The notes: a model not told the origin generated them from the sequence alone. Positions 21,748-25,834 are shown, counted from the stretch's first letter. The stretch: DNA of 64,000 bases from Bacteroidales bacterium (GCA_009777825.1 WRLA01000005.1:9286-73285); one strand, 5' to 3'. Made by a program: numbers and translations.

Positions 21748-22404
21748 TTACATTTTTTTCCTTCTGCCCATCTGTTTTTTATATGCTTCTTGTGCCGCTT
21801 TTCGGCGTTCTTCTATTTCTAATTGGGATAGTTCGATGCCTCGTCTTCGGGCTTCTTCCGAGGAGCGGCGTTTTCGTTCTTCTTCGGCTTGTTGTTCGCC
21901 GGCTTTGGCGGCGTCTGAGCGGCGTTGGTTCTCTAAGAGGTACGACTCTTTCTTTGCTTTCAGTCTTGCTAAGCGCTCATTCAGGAAACCGATGATTTGC
22001 GTTACATTGGCGGTGTCGAGGTAGCGGAAGCAGCCGGTTATTTTGCTCTCTTCTTCTTGCAGCCACTCTTTCGAGGCGTCGGCAAAGTGGTTTTGCAGTT
22101 CGTCAATTTCGTTTTGTATCTCTGTTTTCCGGAGTTCTATTTTTCTCAACTCTGCGTAGAAGATGTCCAACTGGTATTCGATAAAGGCGCCGACCCGGAA
22201 GTTGGACAGATTGGCGCACAATTCCGTTTTTAGGGCGGGGTACGTTTCAAAAAACGGCTCGAACTTCTCCAAATAATCAACATAACCTTTGCTTTCCTGT
22301 TTCAATTGCCTGCGCTCATGCTCAATCCCTGCCGGCTTTTGGGAGATAGCCAACATGCGGTGAGCAAGGTCTATGTAGGATTGACAGAAAGTTGTTGTGT
22401 TCAT
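21748..22404 (-). CDS. 218-aa coiled-coil protein with an E/R/K-rich tail
   Basis: The start codon shares one base with the ATPase stop (22404). C-terminus AEEERKRRSSEEARRRGIELSQLEIEERRKAAQEAYKKQMGRRKKM. Confidence 0.65.
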   Translation of the reverse strand: MNTTTFCQSYIDLAHRMLAISQKPAGIEHERRQLKQESKGYVDYLEKFEPFFETYPALKTELCANLSNFRVGAFIEYQLDIFYAELRKIELRKTEIQNEIDELQNHFADASKEWLQEEESKITGCFRYLDTANVTQIIGFLNERLARLKAKKESYLLENQRRSDAAKAGEQQAEEERKRRSSEEARRRGIELSQLEIEERRKAAQEAYKKQMGRRKKM

Positions 22405-25175
22405 TATTTCGCAAGTTTATAAATTTCAAAAATTTTCTGTAATATTTCGCCTTCTTTTCCTCCCACGTTTTTAGCCTCAAAACAGTTGTAAAACACAAAC
22501 GGATCGGGATTGTAGGTTGCCGTTTCGTCGTCTGTTTGAATCACTCCGTAGCCTTTTCCTTTTGGTTCGGCAGTTTGTTCCGCCAGTATCATCATTCCTC
22601 CGCCTTCTGCCAGGACGATTTTATTTTCAAACTCGTTCCATGTCATGCGTTCGAAGACTTCTTCCAATCCTTTGCAGGTGTAGGAGTAAGCCATGATGTG
22701 GATGCCCATATCGGGACCGTTTTTCAATATTTTGACCAATTTTTCGGTAATGGGCGAGGATTTATAGCCATCTTTTTTCAGTTCTTTGGCGTTTTGGATG
22801 TAGGACAGGGAGAGCACAATGCGTCCTCTGTCGGCGTTGCTGATTCCGTTATTGTCGTTTTCCAAGCGTTGGTTCAGTTCCTGTTCGATATTGTCAACCA
22901 ATTCCGGCAGTTCGCGTTTTTTGCAGTATTGGACATTTTCGATGGATTCGCATATTTGGGGATAATATCCGGCGCGTTCGTCGTCCGCTCCCAGAAAATC
23001 AACGATATAGAATTGCCCGTTTACGGGATTTTGTTTCGCCAACTGATAGTTCGCCAGCATGAGTGTTGACATCGCCGCCTCCATGTCGTTGCCCACCATC
23101 AAGAGATTGGAACAGGGATTGTTTCTGATTTTGAAATGGATGTGTTCGTTGCGGATAAAAGAAGGTACGCCGATATAGATTTTAGATGGTTGCAATGATT
23201 TTGGTTTCGCTTTGGTTTTGGCAGATAGCATGGATATAAACTCCTGATTAGCAGACAAATTGCTGTCTATGCTGCCATCAAATACAAACCGTTGATGGGC
23301 GTAACCGGCTAATTCATTCAGTTTGGAGTTGCAAAATCCTACATATTCGAGCATTTTATCGGTGTAAGCGCCTTGAAATTTGATGTTGTCGCGCACATTT
23401 CCGTTTTTGTTGTTTAGAATCGCTTCGCCTTTTTTGGTCAGGGTGGCGGCGGCTTCGTTACTGCCGCCCAATACTTTGATGCTGTCGTACTCTTTTAAAT
23501 TGAACGCTATCCGCAGCGTGATTAAATCGGTATTAAAGTCTAAGTTGCGGTAACTTTGTGTGCAGAACACAACATGCATCCCGTATTTTCGTCCAATCCT
23601 GACTATTTTTTCCAAATAAAGTCCTGTTTTTCGGGAAATTTTATCTCCACTTTCCAATAATACCTGAAACTCGTCTATAATCACTAATAGTCGAGGTAAG
23701 ATTTCCCCTGTCTGTTTGCGGTACTCTTCTATTTTTTCAATGGTTGTTCCTAATTTATCTCCGGTATTTTTGAAAAGTTCTCCTCTACGATCCATTTCAT
23801 TGATAAGGTGTTCCAACGCGCTAACGGTATATTCCCGTTGGTTTGTGATGGAGACGAAAGTGGCATGTGGCAATTTGTCATAAGGCTTAAATCCTGTTCC
23901 ATTCGCACAGTCTATCAAATAAAAGTTCAGTTCCAAGGGCGAATAGATGATAGCGCCATTGCTGATGATATTGTGCAGCAACACGGTTTTTCCGTACCCG
24001 GGTCGTCCGCCAACCATTGCAAAGTAATCGGCGGTATCGCCTCCCAATTCGAAAAAGACGGTCTCGTCCACCGGTTTTTTCCCAACGGGGATTTTTATGC
24101 CCAACCTGGTACTCTCTTTCCAATAGGTCTGGGTTTGTATCAGATTTTCGAGATACGCATCCAACGAGATAACAGGCTGTTTCACGTTGTTGGCTTTTCG
24201 GTTAATGGCGTCAATGAGCGTGTCTAAGTTGTTGGGAAGTTGTGTGTGAAGTTTGATATTGAATGTGTCGTTGAATGGCTTATCAAAAATGGAGTTGTCA
24301 ATTTCATAGCAGCCGTCGGCATTCGGATAGATCAGCGTGGAGATGTTCATATATTCCGAAATATCAAATCCATGCGGCAGTTTCGCGACGTTATCTTTAT
24401 CTTTTTCTTTATCAATAAAACTAAAACTGTAGAAAATGTAAATTCCGGCTTTGATAGCGTTTTGATTCTGAATCAATTTGTAGAAACGCTCGGTCAATTC
24501 GGTTCTTGAGAATCCGTGCGGGAAATTGGAGATAAAGACAAACCGGTATGGGACAGCCAGTGTTCCGGCGTCTTTGTTGTACTCTTCGAGCGAGTGATAT
24601 TGTATCAGTTGGTTTTGGTTTAAGTCAATAACCGCTTGTTCTAATTCCGTAATCAGTTCGCTCAGTCGTTTTTCGTCGTTGACCATCGCGTTGGTCATGA
24701 TTTTGTCGGACAGGCGGTTCATGACATTGAACTTTTTGCCAAACGAAAGCGTGTCAACAAAATGAAATTTGCACAAACTTATGGGCAGCGACAACATAAA
24801 CCGAAAGGCTATTAACTGAAAAATAGATTGTATTGCATCTTCGTTATTCTGTTCATTATCAATCAAAAATCCGATGGCATTCGTGTTGGTGAAGGGTAAA
24901 ATTGCCGGAATAAGTATGTCGTGAGCGACGTTGTCTTGTTTGGGGAGCAGGTTGCCTATGCGGAAAGCGTAAGGCAGCGGATAGTTCTTCTCATCGTCGA
25001 GCAACACTTTCCCAAAATCACGAATGGCATTGGGCGAAAAACCATAACTCTCGAACAGGTCAACCACCTCCTGTTTGGATTGTTCTATCTCTGCCTCTAT
25101 GGATTTCCGTTTTTCCTCAAAACTTAAATCTATCTCAGCCAGCGTCTTCGAATATGTCGTTGCTAACGCGCTCAT
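22404..25175 (-). CDS. FtsK/SpoIIIE-family (EssC/EccC-like) P-loop ATPase with no TM segment
   Basis: Walker A GGRPGYGKT (encoded at 23985..24011) and Walker B RLLVIIDEFQVL. Flanking N- and C-terminal regions look like degenerate copies of the same fold (RFVFISNF; LLMVGNDMEAAMS, FYIVDFLGADD). Confidence 0.85.
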   Translation of the reverse strand: MSALATTYSKTLAEIDLSFEEKRKSIEAEIEQSKQEVVDLFESYGFSPNAIRDFGKVLLDDEKNYPLPYAFRIGNLLPKQDNVAHDILIPAILPFTNTNAIGFLIDNEQNNEDAIQSIFQLIAFRFMLSLPISLCKFHFVDTLSFGKKFNVMNRLSDKIMTNAMVNDEKRLSELITELEQAVIDLNQNQLIQYHSLEEYNKDAGTLAVPYRFVFISNFPHGFSRTELTERFYKLIQNQNAIKAGIYIFYSFSFIDKEKDKDNVAKLPHGFDISEYMNISTLIYPNADGCYEIDNSIFDKPFNDTFNIKLHTQLPNNLDTLIDAINRKANNVKQPVISLDAYLENLIQTQTYWKESTRLGIKIPVGKKPVDETVFFELGGDTADYFAMVGGRPGYGKTVLLHNIISNGAIIYSPLELNFYLIDCANGTGFKPYDKLPHATFVSITNQREYTVSALEHLINEMDRRGELFKNTGDKLGTTIEKIEEYRKQTGEILPRLLVIIDEFQVLLESGDKISRKTGLYLEKIVRIGRKYGMHVVFCTQSYRNLDFNTDLITLRIAFNLKEYDSIKVLGGSNEAAATLTKKGEAILNNKNGNVRDNIKFQGAYTDKMLEYVGFCNSKLNELAGYAHQRFVFDGSIDSNLSANQEFISMLSAKTKAKPKSLQPSKIYIGVPSFIRNEHIHFKIRNNPCSNLLMVGNDMEAAMSTLMLANYQLAKQNPVNGQFYIVDFLGADDERAGYYPQICESIENVQYCKKRELPELVDNIEQELNQRLENDNNGISNADRGRIVLSLSYIQNAKELKKDGYKSSPITEKLVKILKNGPDMGIHIMAYSYTCKGLEEVFERMTWNEFENKIVLAEGGGMMILAEQTAEPKGKGYGVIQTDDETATYNPDPFVFYNCFEAKNVGGKEGEILQKIFEIYKLAK

Positions 25176-25207
25176 GGTTTGTATTTATCCGTTAAATCAT
25201 TATTTTG

Positions 25208-25834
25208 TCAAAAAGCGGTTTTAAATTTAAACATCGTTTCCCCCATCTTAATAATATCGCCGTCGTATAATTCAACTGTCTCTTCCTCAATATCTTTTTC
25301 ATTAACAAAGGTGCCGTGGGAAGAGAGTTCGTCTTTGATCTTATATTTATCTGCCCGAAACAAAATCGTGGCATGTCTTCTGGACATGGTTTTATCATTC
25401 ACCGTAATGTTGCAGTCAACGCCTTGTCCGATTTCGTTTCGTCCCTCATACAGTTTATAGTCAATCCCCAGCGGATCAATGGAAAAGGTAACCAACCAAC
25501 CCACTAATCGGCGATCGCTCCGACGCTCCTTTTTTACTACAACGCTGCCGCCTTCTGTCTCCTCTTCAAATTCATCCTCGAAAACGGTCTTATTGTTGGA
25601 AATCATGCTGACTTTACGATTCAAACTCTTTGGCTGATTCTTCTCGCCAACAATGATAGTCTTGTTGGAATCATCACCGTCAAACTCCGGAATAACTTGT
25701 GTCTTCATATTTCCGTCGCCCACAATGGTGGCGGTATTATTACCGGACGTGTTCCCTTTCCCTTGACAATGTGGGCATTGTGTCAAATCATCTTTGTAGA
25801 AGTGCCCCTTCGGACATTTTTTAAAACCTTTCAT
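25208..25834 (-). CDS. zinc-ribbon plus FHA domain protein
   Basis: N-terminus CPKGH-x11-CPHC. C-terminal FHA: IGQGVDCNITVNDKTMSRRHATILF...DELSSHGTFVNE...DGDIIKMGETMFKF. Confidence 0.85.
   Translation of the reverse strand: MKGFKKCPKGHFYKDDLTQCPHCQGKGNTSGNNTATIVGDGNMKTQVIPEFDGDDSNKTIIVGEKNQPKSLNRKVSMISNNKTVFEDEFEEETEGGSVVVKKERRSDRRLVGWLVTFSIDPLGIDYKLYEGRNEIGQGVDCNITVNDKTMSRRHATILFRADKYKIKDELSSHGTFVNEKDIEEETVELYDGDIIKMGETMFKFKTAF

Follow-up and report, generated by a model that had tools for sequence, protein, structure and literature searches.

A soluble EssC-like ATPase in a WXG100, FHA and Ser/Thr kinase gene cassette of a Bacteroidales bacterium

Introduction

Can the motor ATPase of a secretion system of type VII (T7SS) be divided between two genes, or does a locus that looks like such a division belong to a different kind of machine? 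This question is raised by a 64,000-nucleotide stretch of a Bacteroidales metagenome-assembled genome (GCA_009777825.1, WRLA01000005.1:9286-73285; hereafter the window), in which a 923-aa protein, publicly annotated as 'FtsK/SpoIIIE domain-containing protein', is encoded next to a small protein with a zinc knuckle and an FHA domain (ZnR-FHA). The window matches a Bacteroidales genome of this kind that carries the locus tags FWG84_01485 and FWG84_01490. EssC/YukB combines two FHA domains, a transmembrane (TM) stalk, a domain without a known function (DUF) and a set of three ATPase domains in one chain, and its FHA2 binds the pseudokinase YukC (PMC12637312). An earlier note on this DNA had described the gene pair as an apparently split EssC.

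Our results place the 923-aa protein, which is soluble and built of three tandem P-loop folds, in the EssC/EccC (YueA-like) branch of the FtsK-HerA ATPases. By homology and domain content it is assigned to the TM-less, FHA-less HP0066-type / CoCoNuT/TerY-P family, which has already been described computationally, and the architecture found in the window is an FHA-rich Bacteroidales variant of that family. We consider it fairly probable that the whole cassette is a phospho-gated, T7-like effector export device, with a soluble EssC-like motor, WXG100 clients and a switch made of FHA, PP2C and kinase proteins.

An EssC-like ATPase without a membrane anchor

The earlier note had proposed a single canonical P-loop in the middle of the protein. 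GGRPGYGKT is indeed the sole Walker A motif of the 923-aa open reading frame (ORF), lies exactly where it had been placed, and is accompanied by a Walker B motif ending in D501/E502. In an alignment of 51 homologues the residues K396, D501, E502, R529, Q540 and R555 are invariant and cluster in the central domain (true numbering; the first rows of our alignments A1 and A4 are without Met1, and the positions printed there are one lower than the real ones). Walker A and Walker B, which define a competent D1 domain in EssC and EccC, are thus present in the central domain and invariant in all 51 sequences. They are kept in neither of the flanking domains; in the C-terminal one, the place of Walker A is occupied by LLMVGNDMEAAMS, starting from aa 691. 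Judging from these motifs, only the middle, D1-like domain is able to hydrolyse ATP, and the degenerate pair presumably acts in assembly and in the docking of substrates.

The kinship of the protein was examined by sequence, profile and structure comparison. Pfam returned a single FtsK_SpoIIIE match (PF01580, aa 343-541, E 9e-26). Among the NCBIfam models EssC ranked first (1.6e-32, aligned to aa 383-843), followed by EccCa (1.7e-22) and EccCb (3e-18), all of them far under the equivalog cut-offs. A profile of the 51 homologues, searched against the PDB sequences, matched EccC of T. curvata at 9e-45, YukB of B. subtilis at 3e-39, EccC5 at 1e-31, FtsK at 7e-17 and HerA at 6e-5, so that FtsK scored 28 orders of magnitude worse than EccC. 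The AlphaFold2 (AF2) model calculated from the same alignment (pLDDT, the score predicted for the local distance difference test, 87.9; predicted template modelling score 0.68) found its best PDB counterpart by Foldseek in the cytoplasmic region of T. curvata EccC with its three ATPases (958 aligned columns, E 6e-31); EssC and EccC D2-D3 came next, and then FtsK motors.

The flanking regions had been called ATPase-like by eye in the earlier note, and both the Foldseek match and searches with domain hidden Markov models (HMMs) bear this out. The central domain HMM scored 134 bits against EssC D1, 73 against D2 and 2 against D3, the N-terminal one showed a weak preference for EssC D2 (17 bits, E 1e-6), and the C-terminal one a weak preference for D3 (17 bits, E 7e-7). 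An hhalign comparison of the ATPase family with an EssC alignment was colinear over 695 columns (probability 99.8) and ran through the EssC DUF region, D1 and D2. The three-fold correspondence therefore differs with the method: DUF-D1-D2 by hhalign, EccC D1-D3 by Foldseek, and, by the HMMs, a D2-like N-terminal, a D1 central and a D3/D2 C-terminal domain. Each flank is a real P-loop fold of the FtsK type, though a degenerate one, and neither has a clear one-to-one orthologue among the EssC domains.

No TM helix was found in the 923-aa ATPase by Kyte-Doolittle 19-residue windows and the AF2 model, in agreement with the earlier note. Its two most hydrophobic 19-mers reach Kyte-Doolittle values of 1.64-1.65, versus 2.3-2.9 for the TM helices of the neighbouring kinase, phosphatase and FHA genes, and both fall on strands and a helix that lie buried in the N-terminal domain, which is modelled with confidence. 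Pfam detected neither an FHA domain nor a gamma domain (PF09397) in the protein. As the 923-aa protein lacks the FHA domains, the TM segments and the partner proteins of EssC (see below), it is not to be filed as EssC. The long helix at its N-terminus is, in the model, a possible site of coiled-coil or adaptor contact.

The zinc-knuckle/FHA protein and the 218-aa protein

The gene upstream of the ATPase encodes, as had been noticed before, a zinc-binding motif followed by an FHA domain; the spacer between the two genes is 32 nt and not 33 nt as previously given. The C/H/C/C zinc ligands are invariant in the five full-length orthologues that were aligned (alignment A4), and so are T, Q and I of the linker motif T45-Q-V-I48, which makes T45-Q-x-I48 a candidate kinase target and a putative pTxxI-type FHA ligand. 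S151 and H154 of the FHA domain are kept in the window copy.

The best PDB relatives of the FHA profile are FhaA, GarA and Rv1747 of M. tuberculosis, with a weak match to the Zn-finger/FHA protein ArnA. When the ZnR-FHA family was compared with the EssC N-terminus (FHA1/FHA2), the hhalign probability was 0.35%, i.e. there is no specific similarity. ZnR-FHA thus appears to be a GarA/FhaA/ArnA-like reader of phospho-threonine (pThr) rather than a detached piece of EssC. As a candidate for an FHA-ATPase (Rosetta-stone) fusion, the sole longer homologue of the ATPase (P0062, 1069 aa) was rejected, its N-terminal extension being of low complexity and not an FHA domain.

In 8 Bacteroidales loci the gene immediately upstream of the ATPase is a ZnR-FHA orthologue, and it is in the Bacteroidales clade alone that this separate FHA domain goes with the ATPase. 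The synteny of the pair is kept down to 41-45% ATPase identity, and therefore the two genes are not chance ORFs. In the same number of Bacteroidales loci (8) the ATPase gene is directly followed by the gene of a helical 218-aa protein, the start of which overlaps the ATPase stop (TAATG) and which is translationally coupled to it. No Pfam or PDB sequence relative of the 218-aa protein was found.

WXG100 proteins and their cargo

Downstream of these genes the window encodes five WXG-type units: two free proteins, one short one and two cargo fusions. A profile of the small proteins had its best PDB match in H. pylori HP0062 (6.7e-18), which has the same W-x-D turn, followed by B. anthracis EsxB (1e-10), the EsxA-like proteins of S. 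agalactiae and S. aureus EsxA (2e-7); Pfam recognised WXG100 in 18 of the 21 family members. The 73-aa WXG-like ORF, which is shorter than the 80-aa limit of the ORF list, sits between the gene for a 163-aa helical protein and that for the vWA-like/TM/FHA protein.

[quoted passage not shown] It occurs at the C-terminal tips of RHS/SpvB-TcdB, DUF6443-RHS, eCIS-core, VanY and pesticin/SH3 proteins, and because of this recurrence it shows the pattern of a polymorphic toxin domain. Its AF2 model (pLDDT 89) had no Foldseek match in the PDB better than E 0.05, and phmmer against the PDB was empty; the modelled domain may represent an undescribed toxin fold. The C-terminal 440 aa of the 539-aa fusion (19153-20472, minus strand) are essentially without homologues, with one 255-aa match at E 3.5e-6. 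Word-index searches had returned only the source proteins for both cargo domains, and the relatives were supplied by HMMER. The orphan region is rich in Gly, Ser, Thr, Asn and Lys, with an alternating, beta-strand-like look; a shorter WXG fusion of similar composition is present in an Alistipes locus (L006, 13371-14147).

The 163-aa protein belongs to a second helical family, hel163, for which no Pfam or PDB sequence match was found; further members are encoded at L006 14765-16648, L024 4327-5280, L043 7710-8801 and L078 12450-13355. The hel163 domain of about 150 aa elsewhere often forms the N-terminus of longer proteins, among them some that end in a GHSLGG lipase-like or a ParB-like ('NGxHR') domain. 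In the related loci a range of C-terminal domains is found fused to WXG as well as to hel163, and the latter looks like a second, LXG-like toxin-targeting domain. The opposite arrangement was seen in a 446-aa Muribaculaceae protein (L001 14248-15588), with an N-terminal HExxH (HEMKH) domain and a C-terminal WXG-like domain, which recalls the reverse-domain T7 lipase toxin TslA.

A membrane-anchored phosphorylation module

The following genes encode a 515-aa FHA protein, a PP2C phosphatase and three Ser/Thr kinases, each kinase with one hydrophobic TM-type segment. The FHA domain of the 515-aa protein keeps the canonical GR, SxxH and NG residues. The periplasmic domain of this protein was recovered as vWA neither by Pfam on the window copy nor by the PDB profile search, and it is kept here as weakly 'vWA-like'. 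In terms of the TerY-P triad, the PP2C and kinase members are thus solid and the vWA member is weak; furthermore, the kinases are without the C-terminal zinc ribbon of TerY-P, and a zinc knuckle is found on the FHA protein instead.

In Muribaculaceae, Alistipes and other Bacteroidales the ATPase has kept this FHA, PP2C and kinase module within its operon. FHA-dependent phospho-signalling is probably important for the system, and it is plausible that the ATPase is brought to the membrane by FHA/pThr contacts, which the earlier note had put forward as a possibility.

Distribution of the ATPase family and its neighbours

There are 229 relatives of the ATPase among the GTDB species representatives, with a median TM count of 0 across the homologues. 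The close homologues (98-38% identity, 890-930 aa), all of them free of TM segments, were found in Bacteroidales metagenome bins, i.e. Candidatus Azobacteroides, Prevotellaceae, Muribaculaceae and Alistipes. Distant members (25-34% identity) are found in Gemmata and other Planctomycetota, Chloroflexota, Verrucomicrobiota, Myxococcota, Pseudomonadota, Deinococcales, Nocardia, Gordonia and the cultured Capnocytophaga gingivalis ATCC 33624.

The neighbours were counted by simple searches in 85 related loci that were fetched, the WXG count being obtained by a single-sequence search. WXG-type genes were present in 33-35 of the 85 loci, across phyla, hel163 in 28, Ser/Thr kinases in 20, and FHA domains in 9 (the Bacteroidales clade and one other). 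At 45% ATPase identity the gene order is still ZnR-FHA, ATPase, a 219-aa protein (its start shared with the ATPase stop), WXG-type small genes and larger effector-like genes, vWA/TM/FHA and PP2C. CoCoNuT or restriction genes were not seen near the proteobacterial relatives L023, L027 and L043, for which Pfam gave unrelated neighbours.

The tie to published cassettes was made through a plasmid search. The gene order on a Caballeronia plasmid is VWA, WXG100, three unnamed genes, FtsK/SpoIIIE, CARF, VWA, PP2C, Ser/Thr kinase and AAA, and the ATPase of this cassette matches that of the window by BLASTP at 3e-46. An FtsK/SpoIIIE protein of a Helicobacter plasmid matches the family profile with an hhalign probability of 100 (E 3e-45, 701 columns). 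On this plasmid, from Helicobacter sp. NHP19-012 (L086 6158-10560), three genes come before that of the HP0066-like ATPase, for an 89-aa protein, an HNH endonuclease and SMI1/KNR4. SMI1/KNR4 proteins are typical of polymorphic-toxin immunity, and the genes are thus arranged like those of an exported nuclease toxin and the protein conferring immunity to it.

In several loci from Capnocytophaga, Lentimicrobiaceae and related bacteria, a second FtsK-like ORF (540-660 aa, one predicted TM helix) adjoins the TM-less ATPase (L028 12533-14160, L025 12563-14370, L015 2635-4620 and L032 7347-9210). These may represent a two-part, EccCa/EccCb-like version of the system. Such an ORF is absent from the whole 64-kb window and from the syntenic Muribaculaceae loci.

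Table 1. Coordinates of the cassette features in the window
Feature	Position	Strand	Evidence
ZnR-FHA protein, 208 aa: zinc knuckle, Thr-containing linker, C-terminal FHA	25208..25834	-	ORF, Pfam
Zinc knuckle C7-x3-H11-x8-C20-x2-C23	25766..25816	-	read from sequence
T45-Q-V-I48 in linker	25691..25702	-	T, Q, I invariant in alignment A4
FHA domain of ZnR-FHA, aa 135-198	25241..25432	-	Pfam E 1e-17
Soluble EssC-like ATPase, 923 aa, HP0066 / CoCoNuT-associated family	22404..25175	-	Pfam, NCBIfam, profile, AF2, Foldseek
Long N-terminal helix of ATPase, aa ~3-43	25047..25169	-	AF2 secondary structure (H2-42, model numbering)
N-terminal degenerate P-loop-fold domain, aa ~60-335, without Walker A or B	24171..24998	-	hhalign, domain HMM, Foldseek
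Central catalytic FtsK/SpoIIIE domain, aa ~343-620, D1-like	23316..24149	-	PF01580, EssC D1 score
Walker A GGRPGYGKT	23985..24011	-	read from sequence; GRPGYGKT = aa 390-397
Walker B LVIIDE, aa 497-502	23670..23687	-	read from sequence; D501/E502
C-terminal degenerate P-loop-fold domain, aa ~655-905	22461..23213	-	NCBIfam EssC alignment to aa 843, hhalign vs EssC D2, domain HMM
Helical protein with highly charged coiled-coil tail, 218 aa	21748..22404	-	ORF
WXG100 fused to polymorphic-toxin-type C-terminal domain, 318 aa	20779..21735	-	WXG profile E 7e-30
WXG100 fused to orphan Gly/Ser/Thr/Asn-rich C-terminal region, 539 aa	19153..20772	-	WXG profile E 2e-30
Free WXG100, 90 aa, HP0062 type (W-x-D turn)	18837..19109	-	WXG profile
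Free WXG100, 87 aa, HP0062 type	18543..18806	-	WXG profile
hel163 helical protein, 163 aa, conserved Cys pair	18047..18538	-	local HMM E 3.6e-15
WXG-like small ORF, 73 aa, WQDE turn	17808..18029	-	WXG profile E 5e-7
Signal peptide, vWA-like periplasmic domain (weak), TM helix, coiled coil, canonical FHA, 515 aa	16251..17798	-	FHA E 9e-19; TM aa 329-347, Kyte-Doolittle 2.87
PP2C phosphatase (Stp1/IreP type), one TM helix, extracytoplasmic tail	15026..16240	-	NCBIfam NF033484 E 6e-76, above curated cut-off
Signal-peptide protein, 365 aa	13927..15024	-	conserved in Bacteroidales cassette
Ser/Thr kinase with FHA and C-terminal TM anchor, 421 aa	12665..13930	-	Pkinase E 1e-54, FHA E 4e-18, hydrophobic tail
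Ser/Thr kinase, TM helix, extracytoplasmic domain, 528 aa	11070..12656	-	domain scan, hydropathy
Outer-membrane beta-barrel protein, 446 aa	9715..11055	-	signal peptide, TPR-like region; PF13568 E 8.5e-13
Ser/Thr kinase, TM helix, extracytoplasmic domain, 528 aa	8103..9689	-	domain scan, hydropathy

Organisation and borders of the island

The cassette forms a Bacteroidales island of about 18 kb. All genes from position 25834 down to about 7385 are on the minus strand, and the GC content of this region is 0.37-0.47, versus 0.46-0.53 in the housekeeping flanks. The flanks contain an acyl-CoA dehydrogenase and electron transfer flavoprotein on one side, and glyoxalase, RecX, a Sir2-family protein and serine hydroxymethyltransferase on the other. 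There are no tRNA genes in the 64-kb window, and no integrase was found among the flanking genes scanned, which are of the housekeeping type.

The Bacteroidetes -7 promoter consensus is TAnnTTTG. The octamer TACATTTG at 25904-25911 (minus strand), which precedes the start codon of ZnR-FHA by 70 nt, fits it and is consistent with an operon start at this point; about 0.1-0.2 chance matches are expected in the spacer. The same spacer, upstream of the island, carries a 94-aa ORF on the plus strand (25976-26260), which resembles a fragment of a beta-sandwich surface-protein domain and may be a gene remnant. At the other end, the beta-barrel gene has a counterpart in none of the 85 related loci and its membership of the island is uncertain; a gene for a 228-aa signal-peptide protein (7385-8071) is likewise without a counterpart in these loci.

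Comparison with known systems

EssC homologues without FHA domains or TM segments, having three ATPase domains of which the central alone is predicted to be active, and an N-terminal coiled coil, were described by Bell 2024 (PMC11090510). Such ATPases occur with two WXG100 genes between vWA genes, beside TerY-P-type PP2C and kinase genes, and a mechanism other than classical T7 secretion was considered likely, given the absent TM segments (PMC11090510). Anantharaman 2012, a computational description of the family (as cited in PMC11090510 and PMC4978471), regarded the WXG100/FtsK operon as a mobile, stand-alone secretion system (as cited in PMC11090510). HP0062 and HP0066 have been named as such a WXG100/FtsK pair in a study of the H. 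pylori pan-genome (PMC4978471), and a review of the HP0062 structure mentions the WRD turn of this protein and the FtsK/SpoIIIE gene beside it (PMC3397514). No experimental study of the TM-less ATPase family was found in the literature searched.

The window cassette shares with these systems direct homology, the three ATPase-like domains, of which the central one alone is intact, the lack of TM segments and FHA domains, the N-terminal helix, the adjacent WXG100 genes with a W-x-D turn, and the association with PP2C and Ser/Thr kinase genes and with a weakly vWA-like one. It differs from them in several respects. Neither the island nor its flanks contain the CoCoNuT core, i.e. the McrBC-like CnuB/CnuC GTPase and nuclease, the CnuH helicase or HEPN. 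The phospho-module is membrane-anchored and rich in FHA domains (ZnR-FHA, vWA-like/TM/FHA and kinase-FHA), the N-terminal helix has about 40 residues compared with the 200 or more reported for some members, and there are several WXG copies, including toxin fusions, as well as a clade-specific 218-aa coiled-coil partner.

With EssC/YukB and EccC the system has in common the ATPase branch, a D1-like motor followed by a degenerate domain, WXG100 clients, and toxins with helical N-terminal targeting domains (compare the LXG-type systems). A partnership of FHA domains with a kinase fold exists in the Firmicute-type system (T7SSb), where YukB FHA2 and the YukC pseudokinase are the partners (PMC12637312); the window kinases, in contrast, are predicted to be active. 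On the other hand, the window ATPase is devoid of TM helices, stalk and fused FHA domains, has three P-loop folds and not a DUF plus three, and is accompanied by none of the EssA/EssB/EsaA/EsaB or EccB/EccD/EccE/MycP partners, in a host that is a diderm. Full-text searches returned no paper on a T7-like system in Bacteroidota.

Two further systems resemble the phospho-module. The threonine-phosphorylation pathway of the secretion system of type VI (T6SS) includes the kinase PpkA, with a periplasmic vWA domain, the PP2C phosphatase PppA and Fha1/TagH. It shares with the window a Ser/Thr kinase, PP2C, FHA and vWA or vWA-like domains and TM anchoring next to a secretion ATPase, which suggests post-translational gating of firing. 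However, the arrangement here is vWA-like/TM/FHA and not kinase/TM/vWA, the window machine is unrelated to a contractile sheath, and the likeness concerns generic domains. In Sulfolobus, ArnA and ArnB, a Zn-finger/FHA protein and a vWA protein under the control of Ser/Thr kinases, regulate the transcription of motility genes. Here, too, a zinc-binding N-terminus is followed by an FHA domain and paired with a vWA-like protein, kinases and a phosphatase, and ArnA (5a8i) was matched by the two FHA profiles (E 6e-4 and 2.5e-7). Nevertheless, the role in motility transcription is archaeal and the likeness is limited to the FHA domain.

Possible function of the cassette

Based on our observations, we suggest how the proposed export device might operate. 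By analogy with its relatives, the ATPase would work as a hexamer and would handle WXG dimers and WXG-tagged effectors; its clients would be the two free and the one short HP0062-type hairpins and, further, effectors carrying the WXG or the second helical targeting domain. The kinases would sense an envelope signal and phosphorylate Thr sites such as T45 of ZnR-FHA, the FHA domains would read these pThr marks and so hold the ATPase at the inner membrane or license it there, and PP2C would reset the switch. ZnR-FHA, the vWA-like/TM/FHA protein, PP2C, the three kinases and the 218-aa protein would probably constitute a TerY-P-like envelope-sensing switch, which would set the moment and the inner-membrane site at which the ATPase assembles and client export takes place. 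Only tentatively do we extend this proposal to a possible route, in which the soluble EssC-like hexamer, recruited through pThr/FHA contacts to a conduit unlike the known T7SS parts, would export WXG-tagged toxins across the diderm envelope.

Several points weigh against export. No polytopic membrane protein is encoded in the locus or conserved across the 85 related loci, and neither Pfam nor NCBIfam matched EssA/EssB/EsaA/EsaB or EccB/EccD/EccE/MycP in the locus genes scanned; consequently there is no visible route across the inner, let alone the outer, membrane. In the window copy of the ZnR-FHA domain, Gln (GQ) takes the position of the phosphate-binding Arg or Lys (GR/GK) of the orthologues, and a physical contact between ZnR-FHA and the ATPase is putative. 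The vWA assignment of the 515-aa protein is weak, as a precomputed Pfam match exists in an orthologue only and the DxSxS motif of the metal-ion-dependent adhesion site (MIDAS) is absent. No immunity gene is evident beside the 318-aa toxin fusion. Finally, members of the ATPase family recur within predicted antiviral systems (PMC11090510), a setting that suits a cytoplasmic role just as well.

The last point leads to the main competing explanation, intracellular defence. According to it, the kinase/phosphatase/vWA switch senses infection or stress, and the ATPase remodels or releases WXG-bound toxins within the cell (abortive infection), with no secretion involved. This would agree with the relationship of the ATPase to its homologue in the Caballeronia cassette (VWA-WXG100-FtsK-CARF-VWA-PP2C-STK-AAA), with the non-classical mechanism read from the absent TM segments (PMC11090510), with the lack of a membrane channel gene conserved with the ATPase family, and with the GC content of the island, which is below that of its flanks. 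However, no nuclease, McrBC, helicase or HEPN module is present in or beside the island, and PADLOC gave only generic P-loop (SspH, mad8) and kinase (PD-T4-6, mad6) matches, which are no evidence for a named defence system. Moreover, the kinases, PP2C and the vWA-like/FHA protein are all membrane-anchored with extracytoplasmic parts, the operon contains signal-peptide proteins, the cargo domain is common to exported RHS and extracellular contractile injection system (eCIS) toxins, and the Helicobacter cassette has the toxin/SMI1-KNR4 immunity layout of exported polymorphic toxins. We regard intracellular defence as an unlikely explanation, albeit a serious one.

It is improbable that the ATPase is the EccCb-like, soluble half of a motor whose TM-bearing, EccCa-like partner is encoded elsewhere. 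The NCBIfam EccCb match and the pairing of TM-less ATPases with a TM-helix-bearing FtsK-like ORF in loci of the Capnocytophaga and Lentimicrobiaceae type speak for such a division, but the second ORF is missing from the window and from the syntenic loci, and the D1-like motor, which is the part of EccCa, is already contained in the 923-aa protein.

The literal form of the split, i.e. fission of a Firmicute-type EssC gene into the upstream FHA gene and the ATPase gene, is very improbable and can be considered largely refuted. What stands from the earlier note is the kinship with EssC/EccC, the tandem ATPase domains and the lack of TM segments. The short distance between the genes, their synteny in the clade, and the binding of T7SSb FHA2 to the YukC pseudokinase (PMC12637312), set beside the real membrane kinases of the window, would fit a fission. 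On the other hand, the FHA domain is related to generic pThr readers and not to the EssC N-terminus, there is one FHA domain only, joined to a zinc knuckle foreign to EssC, the TM and stalk part of EssC is encoded by no gene of the locus, an FHA neighbour is found in just the 9 loci counted above, and the flanking domains cannot be equated cleanly with the EssC DUF, D2 and D3.

A DNA translocase of the FtsK/SpoIIIE or conjugative type, suggested by the PF01580 membership and the public annotation, is effectively refuted on the available sequence comparisons, as the protein has neither a gamma domain nor a TM helix, ranks FtsK far under EssC/EccC among its relatives, and is linked to WXG100 genes and not to DNA-processing or conjugation genes.

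Significance

If the cassette does export WXG-tagged toxins, Bacteroidales of the gut and the termite gut would possess, besides T6SS and the type IX secretion system, another route for effectors aimed at other bacteria or at the host. Export would also mean that a T7 motor works without a membrane anchor of its own, which raises the question of the channel. Should the path lead across the diderm envelope, the cassette would be the first T7-like route shown in Bacteroidota, and its live kinases the counterpart of a fossil FHA-pseudokinase contact; indeed, the locus may show the ancestral, enzymatically live form of that contact in T7SSb. If, on the other hand, it is a cytoplasmic defence device, it would provide a function for the WXG100/EssC-like modules that accompany systems of the CoCoNuT and TerY-P kind. 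In addition, the locus constitutes a tractable test of the gating of a secretion ATPase by Ser/Thr phosphorylation and FHA domains.

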